Source: a virus (Duplodnaviria; Heunggongvirae; Uroviricota; Caudoviricetes). Taken from it: a stretch of 37,385 nt of DNA. Each line of letters starts with the position of its first letter. Position 1 is the first letter of the stretch. Shown here one piece after another: positions 1,018 through 34,765 of the stretch. The DNA lies in IMG/VR virus record IMGVR_UViG_2913123054_000004; one strand, given 5' to 3'. The position numbers and the translations under genes are program-made. Below the pieces are notes generated by a model. That model saw only the letters and a list, made by a program, of their open reading frames with translations. It had not been told where the DNA came from and ran no database searches.

Positions 1018-1098
1018 AAAAAATGCCCTCCAGTGGAGAGCATTCTTACTGTATATATAACCAGTGTCAATGTATTAGATACATGTTGTCATACATCA

Positions 1099-2088: not shown

Positions 2089-3033
2089 TTATAATTCTTC
2101 TATCAGAATAAATTTGCATTTTGCAATAACATCAATATCTGAAATTTTACATTCAAATGATAAATCATTGTCTGAAATTTTTAATCTTCCTACAGGTATT
2201 CTAGTTAGGGTTCGAATGCTCACTTTTCCTTCTATTTTAACAATCCATTTACCATCTGTAATTTCATCGAATGATTGATTACATAGGTATGTTTTTTTTT
2301 CGGTGCTAACAATCAATGGTAATTGGATTGAGTCTGGTAGTAACGCTTTATCAAGCATATAGAAATTTGAATCAAATAGATTCCCGTCAGTAATTTTTTT
2401 GTGAGTAATAGCAATTACATCATTTCTTGCATCGTCAAACTTTGGGCCTTTACCAGTAGTTAGCCACATTAGTGAAGTACCCGTTTCGAGAGCGCACTTA
2501 ATTATCCAGTCTGAAGGAAAAACATCACGCATATATCTTGTGGCTAATGTGCTTTTTGAAATACCTAAGTGATCAGCTAAGGCTTGGCGAGTCTTATAAC
2601 CGTAAGCCCTAACAATTCGCTCTATTGCTTCCTTGCCACCCCGAGAATAATCAATGATGTTTTCATTGTCGAACTTTGGTTGTTTATAGTGAACGTCATG
2701 ATAAGAACCATCTTCGGAGTGTGTTTCAACATGCTGTTCTGGTGAAGGAGATGGCATTTGTTCGTCATCATCTGAACCAAATGCTAGCCATTTAATTGAT
2801 GCTCCTGTTTCCATTGAACAGATAACAATCCAATCTGCAGGAAATGTATCGCGGGCATATCTGTTAGCCATCGTGCTTTGGGAAATACCTAGATGGTTAC
2901 AGAATGCTTGGCGTGACTTGAAGCCATAAGCCATGAGTATCCGCTCGATTACTTTCTGACCACCACGATTTTGTATGACAACGGCTTTCATATCGTCATC
3001 AATATGGCGAAATGTGAATTTTTGAGTTGACAT
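2089..3033 (-). CDS. cI: 186 CI-type immunity repressor carrying two tandem copies of the N-terminal HTH domain
   Basis: 314 aa. Residues ~20-85 and ~125-195 are paralogous (IERILMAYGFKSRQAFCNHLGISQSTMANRY...CSMETGASIKWLAFG versus IERIVRAYGYKTRQALADHLGISKSTLATRY...CALETGTSLMWLTTG), separated by an acidic/Pro linker. C-terminal part resembles the 186 CI oligomerisation domain (WIVKIEGKVSIRTLTRIP...FEC). Confidence 0.8.
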   Translation of the reverse strand: MSTQKFTFRHIDDDMKAVVIQNRGGQKVIERILMAYGFKSRQAFCNHLGISQSTMANRYARDTFPADWIVICSMETGASIKWLAFGSDDDEQMPSPSPEQHVETHSEDGSYHDVHYKQPKFDNENIIDYSRGGKEAIERIVRAYGYKTRQALADHLGISKSTLATRYMRDVFPSDWIIKCALETGTSLMWLTTGKGPKFDDARNDVIAITHKKITDGNLFDSNFYMLDKALLPDSIQLPLIVSTEKKTYLCNQSFDEITDGKWIVKIEGKVSIRTLTRIPVGRLKISDNDLSFECKISDIDVIAKCKFILIEEL

Positions 3034-5176: not shown

Positions 5177-6030
5177 GCACCATCCTGAAATGGGCGGGAA
5201 ATAAAACCGCAATTATGTCCGAACTGAAAAAACACCTTCCTGCTGGCCCGCGACTGGTTGAACCTTTCGCGGGTTCCTGTGCTGTGATGATGGCGACGGA
5301 TTATCCAAGCTATCTGGTTGCGGATATTAATCCTGATTTAATCAACCTCTATAAAAAGGTTGCCGCTGATTGTGAATCGTTTATATCTCGCGCCAGAGTT
5401 TTATTTAAGGAAGCAAACAGGGAGGTGGCTTATTACAACATAAGGCAGGAGTTTAATTACTCAACTGAAATTACTGATTTCATGAAAGCGGTATATTTCC
5501 TGTATCTCAATCGTCACGGTTACCGTGGTTTATGTCGCTATAACAAGAGCGGGCATTTCAACATTCCCTACGGTAATTATAAAAATCCGTATTTCACTGA
5601 AAAAGAAATTCGTGCATTTGCAGTAAAAGCCCTGCGGGCAACGTTTATCTGCGCCAGCTTTGATGAAACGCTGGCGATGTTGAAGGCGGGGGATGTGGTG
5701 TATTGCGATCCGCCTTATGACGGCACGTTTTCCGGTTATCACACTGACGGCTTCACTGAAGATGACCAGTATCACCTGGCATCCGTTCTTGAACATCGAT
5801 CATCTGAAGGTCATCCGGTCATTGTTTCTAACAGTGACACATCCCTGATTCGTTCGCTGTATCGCAATTTCACTCACCACTACATCAAGGCAAAACGCAG
5901 CATCGGCGTGTCGGCTGGCGAGAGTAAATCTGCAACAGAAATCATTGCTGTTTCCGGGGCGCGCTGCTGGGTGGGATTTGATCCTTCGCGTGGCGTGGAT
6001 AGTTCTGCTGTGTACGAGGTGCGTGTATGA
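5173..6030 (+). CDS. dam: DNA adenine methyltransferase (Dam-like, D12 class N6-MTase)
   Basis: 285 aa from ATG 5173 ([11 protein letters not shown]). SAM-binding motif PFAGSCAV and catalytic DPPY (VYCDPPYDG). Start overlaps the upstream stop and the stop overlaps the A start (ATGA). Confidence 0.85.
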
Positions 6031-8441
6031 GTCATGACGATATGAGCAACTCTAGCGGCTTTAACGAGGTCGCTGTAGCATTTTCATGGAACGGCCCGAA
6101 AAAGGCCATTAACCCTTATCTGGAACCGGCGGAAGTTGCGCCGGAGTCTGCACTTTCAAACATGATCACTCTGTACGCTGCCGATAACGAGCAGGAACAG
6201 CAGCGCCGCGAGGCACTGAGTGATCAGGTCTGGGAACGTTATTTCTTTAATGAATCCCGTGATCCTGTCCAGCGCGAAATGGAGCAGGATAAGCTCATTA
6301 GCCGGGCAAAGCTGGCGCATGAACAGCAGCGTTTTAACCCGGACATGGTCATTCTGGCAGATGTCAGCGCCCAGCCTTCTCATATCAGCAAGCCGCTGAT
6401 GCAACGTATCGAATACTTCAGCAGCCTGGGCAGGCCAAAGGCTTATTCCCGCTATTTGCGTGAGACGATTAAGCCATGTCTGGAGCGACTGGATTGTGTA
6501 CGTGACAGTCAGCTATCTGTTTCTTTCCGTTTTATGGCAAGCCATCAAGGGCTGGAGGGTCTGCTGATCCTGCCTGAAATGAGCCAGGATCAGGTGAAAC
6601 GCCTGTCCACCCTGGTAGCAGCGCATATGAGCATGTGTCTTGAGGCCGCTTGTGGTGATTTGTACGCCACCGATGACGTTAAGCCAGAAGAAATCCGCAA
6701 GACATGGGAAAAGGTGGCTGCGGAAACCCTGCGTCTGGATGTTATCCCGCCTGCGTTTGAGAAACTTCGTCGGAAAAGAAACCGCCGCAAACCCGTGCCC
6801 TATGAACTCATACCGGGTTCGCTGGCGCGTATGTTGTGCGCCGACTGGTGGTATCGAAAATTGTGGAGGATGCGTTGCGAATGGCGGGAAGAGCAGTTGC
6901 GTGCTGTCTGTCTGGTCAGCAAAAAAGCATCTCCCTATGTCAGCTATGAAGCCGTGATGCATAAACGTGAGCAGCGCCGCAAGTCGCTGGAGTTTTTCCG
7001 TTCTCATGAACTGGTGAACGAAGACGGAGACACGCTGGATATGGAAGATGTGGTAAACGCCAGCAGCAGCAACCCGGCACATCGCCGCAATGAGATGATG
7101 GCCTGCGTTAAAGGTCTGGAGCTTATCGCGGAAATGCGTGGTGACTGCGCCGTTTTCTACACTATCACCTGTCCGTCACGTTTCCATTCCACGCTCAACA
7201 ACGGCAGACCCAACCCGACCTGGACAAACGCGACGGTAAGGCAAAGCAGCGATTATCTGGTCGGCATGTTTGCTGCATTTCGTAAGGCAATGCATAAAAC
7301 CGGGCTGCGCTGGTATGGCGTGCGGGTGGCTGAGCCGCACCATGACGGTACTGTGCACTGGCATCTTATGTGCTTCATGCGTAAAAAAGACCGCCGCGCC
7401 ATCACTGCATTACTGCGTAAGTTTGCCATCCGTGAAGACCGCGAGGAGCTGGGTAATAACACGGGACCACGCTTTAAGTCTGAGCTGATTAACCCGCGCA
7501 AAGGAACGCCGACAAGCTACATCGCGAAATATATCAGTAAAAATATTGACGGACGTGGTCTGGCCGGCGAGATCAGCAAGGAAACGGGTAAATCCCTGCG
7601 TGATAACGCCGAATACGTGAATGCCTGGGCGTCTCTGCATCGTGTTCAGCAGTTCCGCTTCTTTGGTATTCCGGGACGTCAGGCTTACCGTGAACTTCGC
7701 TTGCTGGCTGGTCAGGCGGCAAGGCAACAGGGTGACAAAAAAGCAGGTGCGCCGGTACTGGATGACCCGCGTCTTGATGCCATCCTGGCTGCTGCTGATG
7801 CTGGTTGTTTTGCCACCTACATCATGAAGCAGGGCGGCGTACTGGTTCCCCGCAAATATCACCTTATCAGAACCGCTTATGAAATTAACGAAGAGCCGAC
7901 CGCCTATGGCGATCACGGTATTCGTATTTATGGCATCTGGTCACCCATTTCAGAGGGCAAGATCTGCACTCATGCAGTGAAGTGGAAAATGGTTCGTAAG
8001 GCCGTTGACGTTCAGGAGGCGGTAGCCGACCAGGGCGCTTGCGCCCCTTGGACTCGTGGCAATAACTGTCCCCTTGCTGAAAATTTGAACCAGCAGGAGA
8101 AAGATAAATCAGCTGATGGGGACACCAGAACGGTCATTACCCGCATGGATGACAAGGAGTTGCACGATTACCTGCACAATATGAGCAAAAAAGAGCGCCG
8201 GGAACTGGCAGCAAGGTTACGCCTGGTGAAACCGAAACGGCGTAAAGACTATAAACAGCGAATTACAGACCATCAGCGACAGCAGCTCGTCTATGAACTG
8301 AAGTCCAGAGGATTTGATGGCAGCGAGAAAGAAGTCGATTTACTTCTTCGCGGCGGCAGTATTCCGTCAGGAGCAGGCCTGCGTATCTTCTATCGGGACC
8401 AGCGTCTGCAGGAGGATGATAAATGGCGGAACCTGTATTAA
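6027..8441 (+). CDS. A: Replication initiation protein A (rolling-circle endonuclease)
   Basis: 804 aa with HUH-type motif (TVHWHLMCF) and tyrosine-containing YIAKYISKN. Size and position as P2/186 gene A. Confidence 0.9.
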
Positions 8442-8534
8442 TTACGCTGATTAACAATTAATGCTCTAAATAATAAGCAAAGGATAAATCCTATTGATTT
8501 TAAAAAAACTTTTTACTTTAACGATATTATTATG

Positions 8535-8554
8535 TACTGTATATAAAACCAGTG
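8535..8554. promoter_or_regulatory. LexA (SOS) box-like operator, TACTGTATATAAAACCAGTG, upstream of the DinI-family module
   Basis: CTGT-N8-CCAG with AT-rich spacer, one mismatch to CTGT-N8-ACAG. A perfect inverted half TATACAGTA follows at 8561-8569. Confidence 0.4.
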
Positions 8555-8596
8555 GTTAAGTATACAGTATTGTCTACCCACAGTGAGATAGGAGGG

Positions 8597-8788
8597 AAGA
8601 TGCAGGATTATTTTTTAGAGTCGTTGAAACTCCAGCGAATTGATTTTTTTCTTAAGCTTGTAGTGGCCAGTGAATGTAGTGATCAGGAAAAAGAGCTTGC
8701 GCTGCTTTGGATTTCAGAACTGACGGATGAACTCATGGCAAAAATCAGAACCCACGAATATAACCGCTCAATGGATGTTGTTAACTGA
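8597..8788 (+). CDS. Hypothetical small protein, first gene of the putative SOS-controlled module (possible Tum N-terminal-like part)
   Basis: 63-aa ORF from ATG 8597 (MQDYFLESLKLQ...); track alternative start at 8552. AT-rich. Immediately upstream of the DinI-like ORF. Confidence 0.4.
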   Translation, partial: KMQDYFLESLKLQRIDFFLKLVVASECSDQEKELALLWISELTDELMAKIRTHEYNRSMDVVN

Positions 8789-8798
8789 GGGGCAATTT

Positions 8799-9032
8799 AT
8801 GCGCATTGAAATAATGATCGATAAAGAGCAAAAAATTAGCCAGTCTACCCTGGACGCCCTTGAATCCGAGCTTTACCGCAATCTGCGCCCCCTGTATCCC
8901 AAAACGGTAATTCGCATCCGCAAAGGTAGCTCTAACGGTGTGGAACTGACCGGACTGAAACTGGACGAAGAAAAAAAACAAGTGATGAAAATTATGCAGA
9001 AGGTGTGGGAAGACGACAGCTGGCTGCATTAA
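8799..9032 (+). CDS. DinI-family protein (DNA-damage-inducible protein I-like; Tum C-terminal-like)
   Basis: 77 aa, MRIEIMIDKEQKISQSTLDALESELYRNL...MQKVWEDDSWLH, aligns with E. coli DinI (MRIEVTIAK...ETWESADDWF). RBS GAGGGG upstream. Confidence 0.75.
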   Translation: MRIEIMIDKEQKISQSTLDALESELYRNLRPLYPKTVIRIRKGSSNGVELTGLKLDEEKKQVMKIMQKVWEDDSWLH

Positions 9033-9161
9033 GAAACGTTGCCCCCAGGAGGATTCATTCTGATGGGGGCTGGTTTGGGCAACGAGTGAAACGAGGCGTA
9101 AGGTGGGCGGACATTTGCCCCAAATTGATAACACTCGTTAAGCTACTTTCCTGATGGATGC

Positions 9162-9497
9162 TTAAGAACGGTCATTCTGTTTAGTTTTCATGAGTGAATC
9201 CCGAATCTTCGCAAGGTTTGAATTTTCGGGGACTGAATCCATGTACGGATCGCGCTCAAACACTAATTGCTCAGATTCAACGAAAGCCCGCCACTCTACT
9301 GGGTCTAGCTCAAACTCCATCGCAGACATATCACTTTCATCTTCCCCCTCGATCCAGTGGACTAAATAAAACAATTCATCATCAGGAGAGTCATCATCGT
9401 CATCAACAATATCAATGTCGGTTACAGTGATGCGTAGGGTGGGATCGATTTTTGAGACATAAATCCCTAACTGTGGCATAGCGGGAATATTGTTCAT
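9162..9497 (-). CDS. Hypothetical highly acidic protein
   Basis: 111-aa ORF with RBS AAAGGA; strongly D/E-rich (DIDIVDDDDDSPDDE, EGEDESD). Confidence 0.55.
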   Translation of the reverse strand: MNNIPAMPQLGIYVSKIDPTLRITVTDIDIVDDDDDSPDDELFYLVHWIEGEDESDMSAMEFELDPVEWRAFVESEQLVFERDPYMDSVPENSNLAKIRDSLMKTKQNDRS

Positions 9498-9895: not shown

Positions 9896-9937
9896 CGCGC
9901 GTTAAGTCATATAAGAGTTATATATTGATTTGATTGC

Positions 9938-9966
9938 TGGACATACATACAGTGTCGCTCTATCAT
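9938..9966 (+). promoter_or_regulatory. Candidate sigma70 promoter for the kinase/HIRAN operon (TGGACA-N17-TATCAT)
   Basis: Hexamers with 17-bp spacing, ~80 bp upstream of the 10048 start codon. Confidence 0.3.
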
Positions 9967-10047: not shown

Positions 10048-10962
10048 ATGCCATACCAATTGGTAGAGCTTAGCCCCGTAGCTAACGATCTTGAACAGTT
10101 AGGAACCAAAGAGAAGTTTTGGTTCTATTTCTCCGATGACACTGTAAATTTGCAGTTGTTTAAGTACTCTAGGCCAGGTACTGGCGAGCATTGGTCTGAA
10201 AAGTGTGCTGCTGAGTTATGTCATTTGCTTAACATTCCACATGCTAGCTATGATTTGGCGCGATACAATGGTCGATTCGGTGTGGTGACTCAGAATATCA
10301 TTCCATCTGGTTTCCGGATGGTAATGGGAAATGAAGTGCTTCACAGTTCGACATTCGATTATCCTGGGCCTTTACAAGCCGGGGAAAAGCCGGTAAGGGT
10401 CAGAGAACACACTGTCACAAGGGTCTTGGGTTGTTTAGATAGGGAATCTATCAAGCCTCCTCCGAGTGTATATGATCTAACCGGGCTAAATGCAGCAGAT
10501 GTATTTTGTGGATATTTGATGCTCGATGCACTTGTGAGTAATCAAGATCGCCACCATGAAAATTGGGCAATCATGCTTAACAATGAAACTGGTGAGCAGT
10601 TTTTGTGTCCAACATACGATCATGCCGCTAGTTTAGGAAGGGAGATGTTAGATGATGAGCGTAACGAACGGCTTAATACTAAAGATAAAAATCGACAAAT
10701 CCCATGTTTTGTAAGAAAAGCTCGCTCTGAGCTATTCAAAGCAAAAACTGATAAAAAGCCCTTGCTGACTGTTGAAGCATTTCAACATGCAGTTGAAGGG
10801 AGAGTTGCCGCTCGCGACCATTGGTTAGGTAAGTTGAGCGTTTTAACAGAAGATTCCATTACAGATGTGTTTAACCAAGTGCCTTCATCGTGTATATCCG
10901 ACAGTGCACGTAGATTTGCAACGTTAATGGTAATGGAAAATCGCAGAAGGTTACTAGAATGA
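10048..10962 (+). CDS. HipA-family serine/threonine kinase, short form (core kinase domain only)
   Basis: 304 aa. P-loop-like LGTKEKFWF near the N-terminus, catalytic-loop motif DALVSNQDRHHENWAIM, metal-binding LCPTYDHAAS; same order as in HipA/HipT. RBS AGGGA upstream. Confidence 0.8.
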   Translation: MPYQLVELSPVANDLEQLGTKEKFWFYFSDDTVNLQLFKYSRPGTGEHWSEKCAAELCHLLNIPHASYDLARYNGRFGVVTQNIIPSGFRMVMGNEVLHSSTFDYPGPLQAGEKPVRVREHTVTRVLGCLDRESIKPPPSVYDLTGLNAADVFCGYLMLDALVSNQDRHHENWAIMLNNETGEQFLCPTYDHAASLGREMLDDERNERLNTKDKNRQIPCFVRKARSELFKAKTDKKPLLTVEAFQHAVEGRVAARDHWLGKLSVLTEDSITDVFNQVPSSCISDSARRFATLMVMENRRRLLE

Positions 10963-11699
10963 CTAATACAAACTCCGTTTACGTCGCATGGCAGGCACCA
11001 GATACCAGAGACTGGCATGTTGTTGGTAACTTGCAAGAGCGCAAATCGGGGTATGTTTTCAGGTATACCAAAGGTGCTCTTAAATCTTCTAAATTTACAA
11101 AGTTTAGCGGCATGAGTGATGTTCGTGAAACTTATGTATCGGAAGAATTGTTTCCTCTTTTTAAAAATCGCCTTTTATCACCGAGACGTCCAGAGTATCC
11201 GAGTTTCATTAAATGGCTTGGATTTGAAGAAGATAAGGTAAATCCTATCGATATTCTTGCTCGCTCGGGAGGCTTACGAAGCACTGATCAGCTGCAGATT
11301 TTCAAAAAAATTGATTTTGATTCTGATGGTAACTTTGAGCATTTTTTCTTCTTACATGGACTTGGTTACTTGAATAGCTTAGCTAATGCTCGTGTATCTG
11401 AATTGAAACCGGGGCAAATTTTGCGTCTTTGCTTGGATCTTCAAAATGAATACGATGGGGATGCTGTTGTCGTTCGTGCAGATAAACCAGCTGAAATCGT
11501 TGGTTACTGCCCTAGGTATTTAAGTAATGACATCAAGAAGATGTTATTGGATGATCCAAAATCAATCACTTTAACGGTCGAAAAGATTAGTGATGATGCT
11601 CCTCATAACTATCGGTTATTATGTAAATTATCAGGGGTACTAAGCCAAGCCTGTCAATCGACGCTGATTCCTCAAGATGAGTTTGAACCTATTGAGTAA
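10959..11699 (+). CDS. HipS-like (HipA N-terminal subdomain-like) protein with C-terminal HIRAN domain; putative partner/antitoxin of the kinase
   Basis: 246 aa. Start overlaps kinase stop (ATGA). N-terminal half shows HipA N-subdomain-like patterns (EELFPLFKNRLLSPRRP, PIDILARSGGLRSTD). C-terminal ~90 aa has HIRAN hallmarks (LQNEYDGDAVVV...EIVGYCPRYL). Confidence 0.75.
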   Translation: MTNTNSVYVAWQAPDTRDWHVVGNLQERKSGYVFRYTKGALKSSKFTKFSGMSDVRETYVSEELFPLFKNRLLSPRRPEYPSFIKWLGFEEDKVNPIDILARSGGLRSTDQLQIFKKIDFDSDGNFEHFFFLHGLGYLNSLANARVSELKPGQILRLCLDLQNEYDGDAVVVRADKPAEIVGYCPRYLSNDIKKMLLDDPKSITLTVEKISDDAPHNYRLLCKLSGVLSQACQSTLIPQDEFEPIE

Positions 11700-32642: not shown

Positions 32643-33124
32643 TGATGGTGCTTGGATTGTACGTGTTTATGCTGCGCACCGTGCCGTATCAGGAACTGCA
32701 GTATCAACGCAGCTGGCGACATGCGGCTAACAGCCGGGTAAATCGTCGTCCGTCCACGCAGTTTCTGGGACCGGACAACGACATGCTGACGCTTTCTGGT
32801 GTTCTTATGCCGGAGATAACAGGCGGCAGGCTGTCGTTGCTGGCACTGGAGCAGATGGCAGAACAGGGGAAAGCATGGCCCCTGATTGAAGGCAGCGGCA
32901 CGATTTACGGCATGTATGTGATTGAGGGACTGAATCAGACTAAAACGGAGTTTTTCCGCGACGGTATGCCGCGCCGGATTGAGTTCACCCTGTCGCTCAA
33001 ACGGGTGGATGAATCCCTGTCCGATATGTTCGGTGATCTTAGTGCGCAACTGAATAATCTGCAGGACATGGCAACGTCTGCCTTAAGCGATATCAGTAAA
33101 ACGGTGGGAGGGCTGCTGTCGTGA
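32639..33124 (+). CDS. U: Tail protein U (P2 gpU-like)
   Basis: 161 aa; start overlaps the T stop. Confidence 0.85.
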   Translation: MMMVLGLYVFMLRTVPYQELQYQRSWRHAANSRVNRRPSTQFLGPDNDMLTLSGVLMPEITGGRLSLLALEQMAEQGKAWPLIEGSGTIYGMYVIEGLNQTKTEFFRDGMPRRIEFTLSLKRVDESLSDMFGDLSAQLNNLQDMATSALSDISKTVGGLLS

Positions 33125-34530: not shown

Positions 34531-34610
34531 CGCTGCCGCCATTTTGTCGCCATCGTTAAAAAACAGTGCTTCTAACATCATGATTTTAAACGGCATAAAT
34601 TTCAGGCAAC

Positions 34611-34653
34611 AAAAAACCCATCAACCTTGAACCAAAATGGCGGGGTTGATGGG
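34611..34653 (-). terminator. Hairpin plus T-run on the minus strand downstream of ybjL (probable ybjL terminator, near the prophage right junction)
   Basis: Minus strand reads CCCATCAACC, 17-nt loop, GGTTGATGGG, TTTTTT. Confidence 0.4.
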
Positions 34654-34765
34654 CTCCACAAAATGGGGACATCAAAGAAAAGCAGTGGCACTAATTAAGA
34701 CTGATGCCCCAAAGAAAAGTTCGCCGATTGTACAAAAAAATTTCATTTTCAGGGCAACTTCAGTT

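Follow-up and report, generated by a model that had tools for sequence, protein, structure and literature searches.

A Split tum Module behind a Predicted Dual LexA Operator in a Fels-2-Type Prophage of the P2/186 Family

Introduction

The closest described relatives of the locus reported here are the tum genes of phage 186 and its kin. The locus occupies positions 8535–9032 of the virus record IMGVR_UViG_2913123054_000004 (Caudoviricetes), a stretch of 37,385 nucleotides (nt) that was analysed as a whole and is called the window below. It consists of two open reading frames (ORFs), ORF1 and ORF2, behind a pair of predicted LexA boxes. We named the two ORFs tumA and tumB, and consider it very probable that the locus is the SOS induction module of a Fels-2-type prophage of the P2/186 family, with a LexA-repressed TumA antirepressor and a DinI-like TumB.

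In phage 186, Tum is the product of one fused gene of 146 amino acids (aa), in which internal starts also give the DinI-like part. The 186 record states that these truncated DinI-like Tum products "modulate SOS induction". Lemire et al. described a tum gene "split into two halves" and reported the upstream gene of phage PSP3 as an antirepressor (PMC3121763). The GenBank record of PSP3 annotates tumA as "similar to 5' end 186 tum; UV induction of prophage" and tumB as "similar to dinI and 3' end of 186 tum".

The arrangement has also been approached genetically. In the Phollow study, "tum" was deleted in DuoHS, a P2-like prophage of Escherichia coli HS, and lysis induced by mitomycin C was abolished; lexA(Ind-) likewise abolished it (PMC12055606). 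The deleted gene is ECHS_RS04495, a 62-aa ORF upstream of a DinI-like gene. The split Tum module is already known, and it has been genetically tested in this orthologue.

A comparable system exists in the prophages Gifsy-1 to Gifsy-3 (dinI-gfoA and its relatives), where a LexA-repressed operon encodes a DinI homologue together with a small antirepressor, which acts in trans on a non-cleavable repressor and inactivates it (PMC3121763). The gene order of these operons is reversed relative to the present locus, with dinI coming first. Both the antirepressors and the repressors of Gifsy come from unrelated families, and their phages are lambdoid.

The main value of the present analysis is correct annotation: in the database records examined, a gene of 62 aa has been filed as hypothetical or, wrongly, as a levan regulatory protein. 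This small Tum-type antirepressor would decide whether DNA damage, including that caused by SOS-inducing antibiotics, induces a very common prophage type of E. coli, Salmonella and Klebsiella.

Results and Discussion

Relationship of ORF1 to the N-Terminal Half of Tum

We compared ORF1 with the PHROG profiles and found that it matched phrog_698 (E = 4e-36), phrog_1993 (E = 1.5e-23) and phrog_8554 (E = 3e-12). Residues 1–70 of 186 Tum matched the same three profiles in register (E = 5.9e-6, 2e-4 and 1e-8, respectively), and PSP3 TumA is itself a member of phrog_1993. A direct BLASTP comparison placed residues 7–42 of ORF1 on residues 7–42 of 186 Tum (E = 2e-5). Because the profile cross-hits, the BLASTP match and the identical gene order agree, ORF1 is, as judged from sequence comparison, the Fels-2-type counterpart of the N-terminal (antirepressor) half of Tum. 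By transfer from its relatives, ORF1 is predicted to be an antirepressor, which would bind the repressor CI, block its DNA binding and be needed in SOS induction.

AlphaFold2 modelled ORF1 as a hairpin of two helices (pLDDT 90), the turn of which carries the invariant Cys26; the family alignment contains 31 invariant columns. A Foldseek search with this model against the PDB returned only generic helical hairpins, none of them at E ≤ 0.001. The closest tested relative is the DuoHS protein ECHS_RS04495, to which ORF1 is 87% identical.

The exact ORF1 protein was found on 137 contigs. Its NCBI name is "hypothetical protein"; UniRef lists it as "Levan regulatory protein", and some records of Klebsiella phages give "levan regulatory domain protein". 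The levan regulatory name is at odds with the identification of ORF1 as a Tum-type antirepressor.

Relationship of ORF2 to Tum and DinI

ORF2 matched the Pfam DinI family PF06183 over the complete profile (positions 1–63 of 63; E = 4e-23, 81.9 bits, cut-off 24.2). It was 40% identical to residues 71–145 of 186 Tum (E = 1e-23), and it aligned to positions 71–148 of the 151 positions of phrog_189. The comparison with E. coli DinI (PDB 1GHH) covered the full length, residues 1–75 (E = 1.2e-6), and took in the acidic C-terminal W-E-x-(D)-W region. With 44.5 bits, ORF2 did not reach the 111 bits that NCBIfam sets as the equivalog cut-off for chromosomal DinI, and for this reason it is classed by sequence as a member of the DinI family and not as a DinI equivalog. 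It is 97% identical to ECHS_RS04500 of E. coli HS.

These comparisons bear on most of what the original prediction had claimed for the coding part. It had described a first ORF of 63 aa, which is in fact 62 aa long, and a DinI-family ORF in a different frame with its own ribosome-binding site (RBS), which is what we found. It had also stated that the C-terminal part of 186 Tum is DinI-like and had proposed that the Tum equivalent appears here as two cistrons; the alignments of both ORFs to 186 Tum and of ORF2 to DinI agree with both statements. Its suggestion that the locus is either a two-protein antirepressor or a DinI-type modulator was right in its elements and wrong in treating them as exclusive, the upstream cistron being the predicted antirepressor and the downstream one the DinI homologue.

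Conservation of the Split Arrangement

We examined conservation in two samples, 80 IMG/VR loci for the Fels-2 type and 80 loci for the 186 type. In the Fels-2 type, two overlapping LexA boxes, the 62-aa ORF, a gap of 10 nt between the tumA stop and the tumB ATG, and the 77-aa ORF were all kept in 77 of the 80 loci. In the 186 type, a fused gene of 146 aa behind one box was found in 78 of the 80. Short relatives of the Tum N-terminus had suggested that split forms are dominant in the 186 lineage as well; this was rejected by the DNA-level check, which returned the fused genes just mentioned.

The synteny is identical in Fels-2, PSP3, E. coli HS and STEC383, and the layout after gene A is also found in 186 and ESSI-2. 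Each relative differs from the locus in its own way. The 186 locus shares the position right after gene A, a LexA box over a −10 element TACTGT, and the set of 186-type CI, Apl and CII; however, it has the fused gene, a single LexA box and a downstream orf97, whereas the present locus has two cistrons behind two overlapping boxes and no homologue of orf97. At the nucleotide level, the Fels-2 genes STM2728/STM2726.1 are about 86% identical to the locus; they also have its dual box and frame arrangement, and differ only in sequence detail and downstream cargo. In PSP3, the upstream gene encodes about 60 aa and the downstream gene a DinI homologue of 77 aa, but identity between its TumA and ORF1 is only 22%, both genes lie in one frame with a stop between them, and there is just one LexA box. 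DuoHS of E. coli HS has the dual box as well and is integrated in the same region, beside rcdA/rybB; it differs in its cargo genes and in its CI, which has 189 aa and a single helix-turn-helix (HTH) domain, whereas the CI of the window has 314 aa and two.

A fourth form is given by the ESSI-2 type, in which TumA stands alone without a DinI partner behind one box. In the stretches examined, a TumA-like gene alone was found after gene A in Cronobacter phage ESSI-2 (650–870), where it is unannotated, and in Escherichia phage ESSI2_ev015 (650–915). The single LexA boxes of these two phages are TACTGTTTATATGTACAGTG and TACTGTGTTTATATACAGTT, respectively. TumA alone behind a LexA box fits TumA as the core antirepressor. 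A comparative scheme may perhaps be useful here, in which tum is fused behind one box in 186, split behind a colicin-like dual box in the Fels-2 type and split behind one box in PSP3, and ESSI-2 has TumA alone.

The module was found in 1072 of 5426 complete E. coli genomes at ≥80% nucleotide identity; the 186 tum region was matched in only 42 of these. In IMG/VR, a relative is encoded on at least 595 stretches.

The two ORFs lie in different frames, and the 186-type relatives are fused; both facts could be explained if ORF1 and ORF2 were the remains of a fused 186-type tum broken by a frameshift; the locus would then be a pseudogene in decay, left with DinI activity at most. However, the split, the dedicated RBS and the gap are retained in the 77 loci with both ORFs intact, the module is present in about a thousand E. 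coli genomes as counted above, and the ORF1 family keeps its invariant columns. Moreover, E. coli HS loses induction when nothing but the 62-aa orthologue is deleted (PMC12055606). A decaying pseudogene is extremely improbable. Because the architecture is conserved and the module is widespread, the split is no broken gene but an architecture that is stable and selected, and TumA is its constant element.

A programmed +1 frameshift might still add a fused Tum-like protein to the two separate products. The zone open in both frames covers 62 nt (8727–8788) and includes an A5 run at 8740–8744, and in the frame of ORF2 no stop occurs in the 25 codons before its ATG; this holds for the window, Fels-2, HS and 77 of the 80 relatives. 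However, 25 open codons are expected by chance in about one case in three (our own estimate, (61/64)^24), no strong slippery motif is present, and the would-be linker has, by inspection, no evident likeness to the linker of 186. The fusion is rejected because close relatives carry a stop one codon upstream of the tumB ATG, among them STEC383, which is 98.8% identical, and three other loci. We regard such a frameshift product as scarcely credible.

Predicted LexA Operator and Its Likeness to Colicin Operators

The region between gene A and ORF1 is poor in G and C (28.5% at 8442–8599, versus 50.2% for the whole window). We scored the window with a 20-nt position weight matrix (PWM) built from 28 chromosomal E. 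coli LexA sites listed after published compilations; the absolute scores are approximate. Box 1 reached 25.4 bits with a heterology index (HI) of 2.6, the second best LexA score in the window. Box 2 reached 15.4 bits on its better strand (HI 8.7). The training sites range from 14.7 to 27.5 bits, which puts box 1 inside the range and box 2 at its weak end. In 30 shuffles of the window, the mean maximum was 12.4 bits and the top value was 17.4 bits.

The two boxes share 5 nt (CAGTG, 8550–8554), and the left arm of box 2 reads GTG instead of CTG. The composite pattern CTG-N10-CAGTG-N10-CAG occurs twice in the window, versus 0.03 matches expected. The dual-box pattern (CTG/CAG) is kept in the 77 conserved relatives, with variation only in the box spacers. 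The other composite match, at 32831–32861 (minus strand), has G+C-rich spacers and scores below 12 bits in the PWM scan; it is most likely due to chance.

The AT-rich island after gene A and the LexA-box-like sequence within it had both been pointed out in the original prediction, and both stand. The prediction had further noted a perfect inverted half 7 base pairs (bp) beyond that box. This half is present (TATACAGTA, 8561–8569), but it is not a stray half-site; it is the right arm of the overlapping box 2.

Support that is independent of the PWM came from plasmids. We searched 8528–8575 by blastn against 7.3 gigabases (Gb) of plasmid sequence and obtained more than 1200 records (E = 2e-8), with small Col-type plasmids leading. 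The matches lie directly upstream of the colicin Y gene and of a Klebsiella tRNase bacteriocin gene. In the colicin Y promoter, 33 of the 35 nt of the dual operator are the same as in the tum operator, and in the promoter of the Klebsiella tRNase bacteriocin (on a 9294-bp plasmid) 32 of the 35 are the same. Box 1 of the tum operator is identical to that of the Klebsiella bacteriocin plasmid and has one mismatch to that of colicin Y. The shared layout comprises two 20-nt boxes, the 5-nt overlap and the GTG in the left arm of box 2. Unlike in the colicin and klebicin operons, the operator would here drive a phage antirepressor, and the −35 region and the downstream leader are unrelated.

Because the PWM scores exceed those of the shuffles, the composite pattern is rare by chance and the sequence is nearly identical to bacteriocin dual SOS operators, we predict that 8535–8569 is an E. 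coli-type dual LexA operator over the tum promoter. Colicin dual operators have been described as bound by two LexA dimers, which prevents untimely expression (PMC2994835). By analogy, we hypothesize that the dual box may tighten repression and give later derepression than the single box of 186.

The likeness of the tum and colicin operators could be caused either by exchange or by convergence. Our full-text literature search for the dual-operator sequences found no paper, and we consider the near identity of the tum dual operator to the colicin dual SOS boxes a modest new point.

Promoter, Ribosome-Binding Sites and Operon End

The annotated promoter p95 of 186 has a −35 element TTCACA, a spacer of 18 nt and a −10 element TACTGT, which is the left arm of its LexA site. 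By analogy, we placed the putative tum promoter hexamers as given in Table 1, with TTTACT as −35 and the TACTGT of box 1 as −10; the spacer between them is 17 nt. The motif TTTAC(T/A) is kept in E. coli HS, Fels-2 and STEC383.

The RBS of tumA was read from the sequence, and ATAGGAGG(A/G)AAGATG at this site is conserved in HS, Fels-2 and STEC383. The RBS of tumB overlaps the stop codon of tumA. In the scan of 8300–9300 for promoters and terminators, the only sites reported were a minus-strand promoter site and a weak hairpin, both inside ORF1 and at chance level.

Downstream of tumB lies a G+C-rich hairpin whose fold has a 7-bp stem with six G-C pairs and a tail poor in T (TGGTTTGGG). It was no more stable than shuffled sequences (z-score −0.48), and it was not reported by the terminator scan. 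Its position matches that of t95a of 186, and it is a possible weak terminator. No homologue of orf97 or STM2726 was found in the window, and the next ORF is convergent; for these reasons the operon most likely ends after tumB.

The CI Repressor and the Proposed Mechanism

The presumed target of TumA is the 186-type CI encoded near the start of the window. Pfam assigned to it PF07022 (E = 2e-57, two stretches) and PF16452 (E = 2e-31), and no peptidase S24 match. The protein is related to the CI proteins of 186, PSP3 and HP1, and its gene adjoins Apl-like and CII genes. Full-length relatives with 53–58% identity occur in Klebsiella phages, and PSP3 CI aligned over residues 28–310. The CI proteins of 186 (579-bp gene) and E. 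coli HS (570-bp gene) have about 190 aa. A 186-type CI that appears from its domain content to have no autocleavage domain fits induction by an antirepressor.

Lysogeny and induction would proceed as follows. In the undamaged lysogen, LexA on the two overlapping boxes would cover the −10 region and the promoter start and keep the operon off, as the positions of the boxes suggest. After DNA damage, active RecA would cause LexA to cleave itself, and a short bicistronic mRNA would be made. The dependence of induction on tum and on cleavable LexA has been demonstrated in the HS relative (PMC12055606). TumA, as a helical hairpin, would bind the 186-type CI and stop its operator binding, as 186, PSP3 and the HS phenotype lead us to expect. 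With CI inactivated, the early lytic promoter would fire, and the prophage would be excised and replicated. TumB, to judge from its family, probably binds RecA filaments and tunes the SOS signal.

Another view is that the locus is only an SOS-inducible DinI "moron" acting on the RecA of the host, with ORF1 a leader or irrelevant and induction taking another route. LexA-controlled DinI genes that are not themselves antirepressors are common in prophages, for example the Gifsy dinI (PMC3121763), and ORF1 belongs to no Pfam or NCBIfam family. However, ORF1 is homologous to the N-terminal half of Tum and to PSP3 TumA, its orthologue is needed for induction in HS (PMC12055606), and the ESSI-2-type phages keep ORF1 without the DinI partner. 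The CI of the window also has no autocleavage domain by Pfam. We consider this view very unlikely, and TumA remains the predicted inducing component.

Several points weigh against an antirepressor module as described. The pairwise homology between ORF1 and Tum is weak (25% over 36 aa). When the ORF1 family was compared with the Tum N-terminal family by hhalign, the match was in register (E = 8e-4) but had a probability of only 24%, from shallow alignments. Because these shallow alignments keep the hhalign probability low, the homology call leans on the hidden Markov model (HMM) cross-hits. The role given to TumB is derived from its family. The scores of the LexA PWM are approximate in absolute terms. 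A strict sigma-70 consensus scan of 8300–9300 passed no plus-strand promoter, and because of this the promoter hexamers rest on the analogy with 186 p95. Finally, the CI of the window has a duplicated HTH, unlike the CI of 186 and HS, and the specificity of the pairing between TumA and CI is assumed by analogy.

Prophage Setting and Further LexA Boxes

The window is a P2/186-family prophage of Fels-2 type (Felsduovirus-like). Past cI, the genes follow in the order of an apl-like gene, cII, a Dam methylase gene, replication gene A, the tum locus, a cargo region and the late genes. The coordinates of the features are collected in Table 1.

Table 1. Positions, strands and particulars of the features of the window.
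Feature	Position	Strand	Particulars
int	1–1017	minus	
LexA box before int	1047–1066		TACTGTATATATAACCAGTG
Cargo ORF	1099–2076	minus	325 aa; between cI and int
CI immunity repressor (186-type cI)	2089–3033	minus	314 aa; two Phage_CI_repr HTH domains and Phage_CI_C
Replication gene A	6027–8441		
Putative −35 of tum promoter	8512–8517	plus	TTTACT; analogy with 186 p95
Putative −10 of tum promoter	8535–8540	plus	TACTGT, left arm of box 1; analogy with 186 p95
Predicted LexA box 1	8535–8554	plus	TACTGTATATAAAACCAGTG
Predicted LexA box 2	8550–8569	plus	CAGTGGTTAAGTATACAGTA
tumA RBS	8590–8596	plus	AGGAGGG
tumA (ORF1)	8600–8788	plus	62 aa; ATG 8600, stop 8786–8788
tumB RBS	8787–8792	plus	GAGGGG
tumB (ORF2)	8799–9032	plus	77 aa; ATG 8799, stop 9030–9032; frame differs from tumA
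Hairpin	9041–9070	plus	GCCCCCA...TGGGGGC; 8 nt past tumB stop
Acidic ORF	9162–9497	minus	111 aa; convergent with tumB
LexA box before HipA-like/HIRAN pair	9935–9954		TGCTGGACATACATACAGTG
HipA-like kinase	10048–10962		PADLOC PDC-M03A/B candidate defence system
HIRAN-domain protein	10959–11699		PADLOC PDC-M03A/B candidate defence system
RybB small RNA gene	34608–34686	minus	Rfam RF00110, 106 bits

The best LexA box of the window (26.4 bits) lies in the intergenic stretch 1018–1098, 30 nt upstream of the int start. Read on the int strand, it stands just 3' of a perfect TTGACA and is followed by AAGAAT and a GGAGGG RBS. From this context it looks like a LexA-repressed int promoter. The box is conserved in place in DuoHS of E. 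coli HS and in STEC383, despite other cargo between cI and int; 186 and Fels-2, in which cI lies directly against int, do not have it.

A third LexA box (20.7 bits) was found about 95 nt upstream of the HipA-like/HIRAN gene pair, whose matches to PDC-M03A/B have E = 2e-122 and 7e-93. Among 49 homologue loci of IMG/VR, 43 have a box of ≥17 bits at 89–113 nt upstream, down to 67% protein identity; the box is lost in the group with 56–58% identity. In a limited search we found no literature on the int box or the defence-operon box, and we consider the two conserved LexA boxes before int and the candidate defence operon another modest new point.

As predicted from these boxes, the prophage may carry several LexA-controlled promoters, and the int and defence-operon boxes suggest that the SOS wiring of such prophages extends beyond tum. 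It is conceivable, though doubtful, that the Fels-2-type lineage put a dual operator of the colicin type, perhaps obtained from Col plasmids by exchange, in place of the single box of 186 and PSP3, and also has a three-promoter prophage SOS regulon. If this is true, induction would be a high-threshold, late SOS event, and the regulon would couple induction, excision and the defence candidate.

The remaining observations concern the surroundings of the module. An Rfam scan found no RNA family in or near the tum locus. The RybB gene is a marker of the host flank, and DuoHS of E. coli HS is located between rcdA and ybjL; on these two grounds, the rybB region, or a place close to it, seems to be the insertion site of this prophage type. 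The 111-aa ORF downstream of tumB is very acidic, with runs of D and E, and had no Pfam or PADLOC match. The 325-aa cargo ORF had no convincing Pfam or PADLOC family; it contains a long coiled-coil region and probable transmembrane segments. The same slot between cI and int is occupied by a DUF4041 protein in STEC383 and by a 63-aa ORF in E. coli HS.

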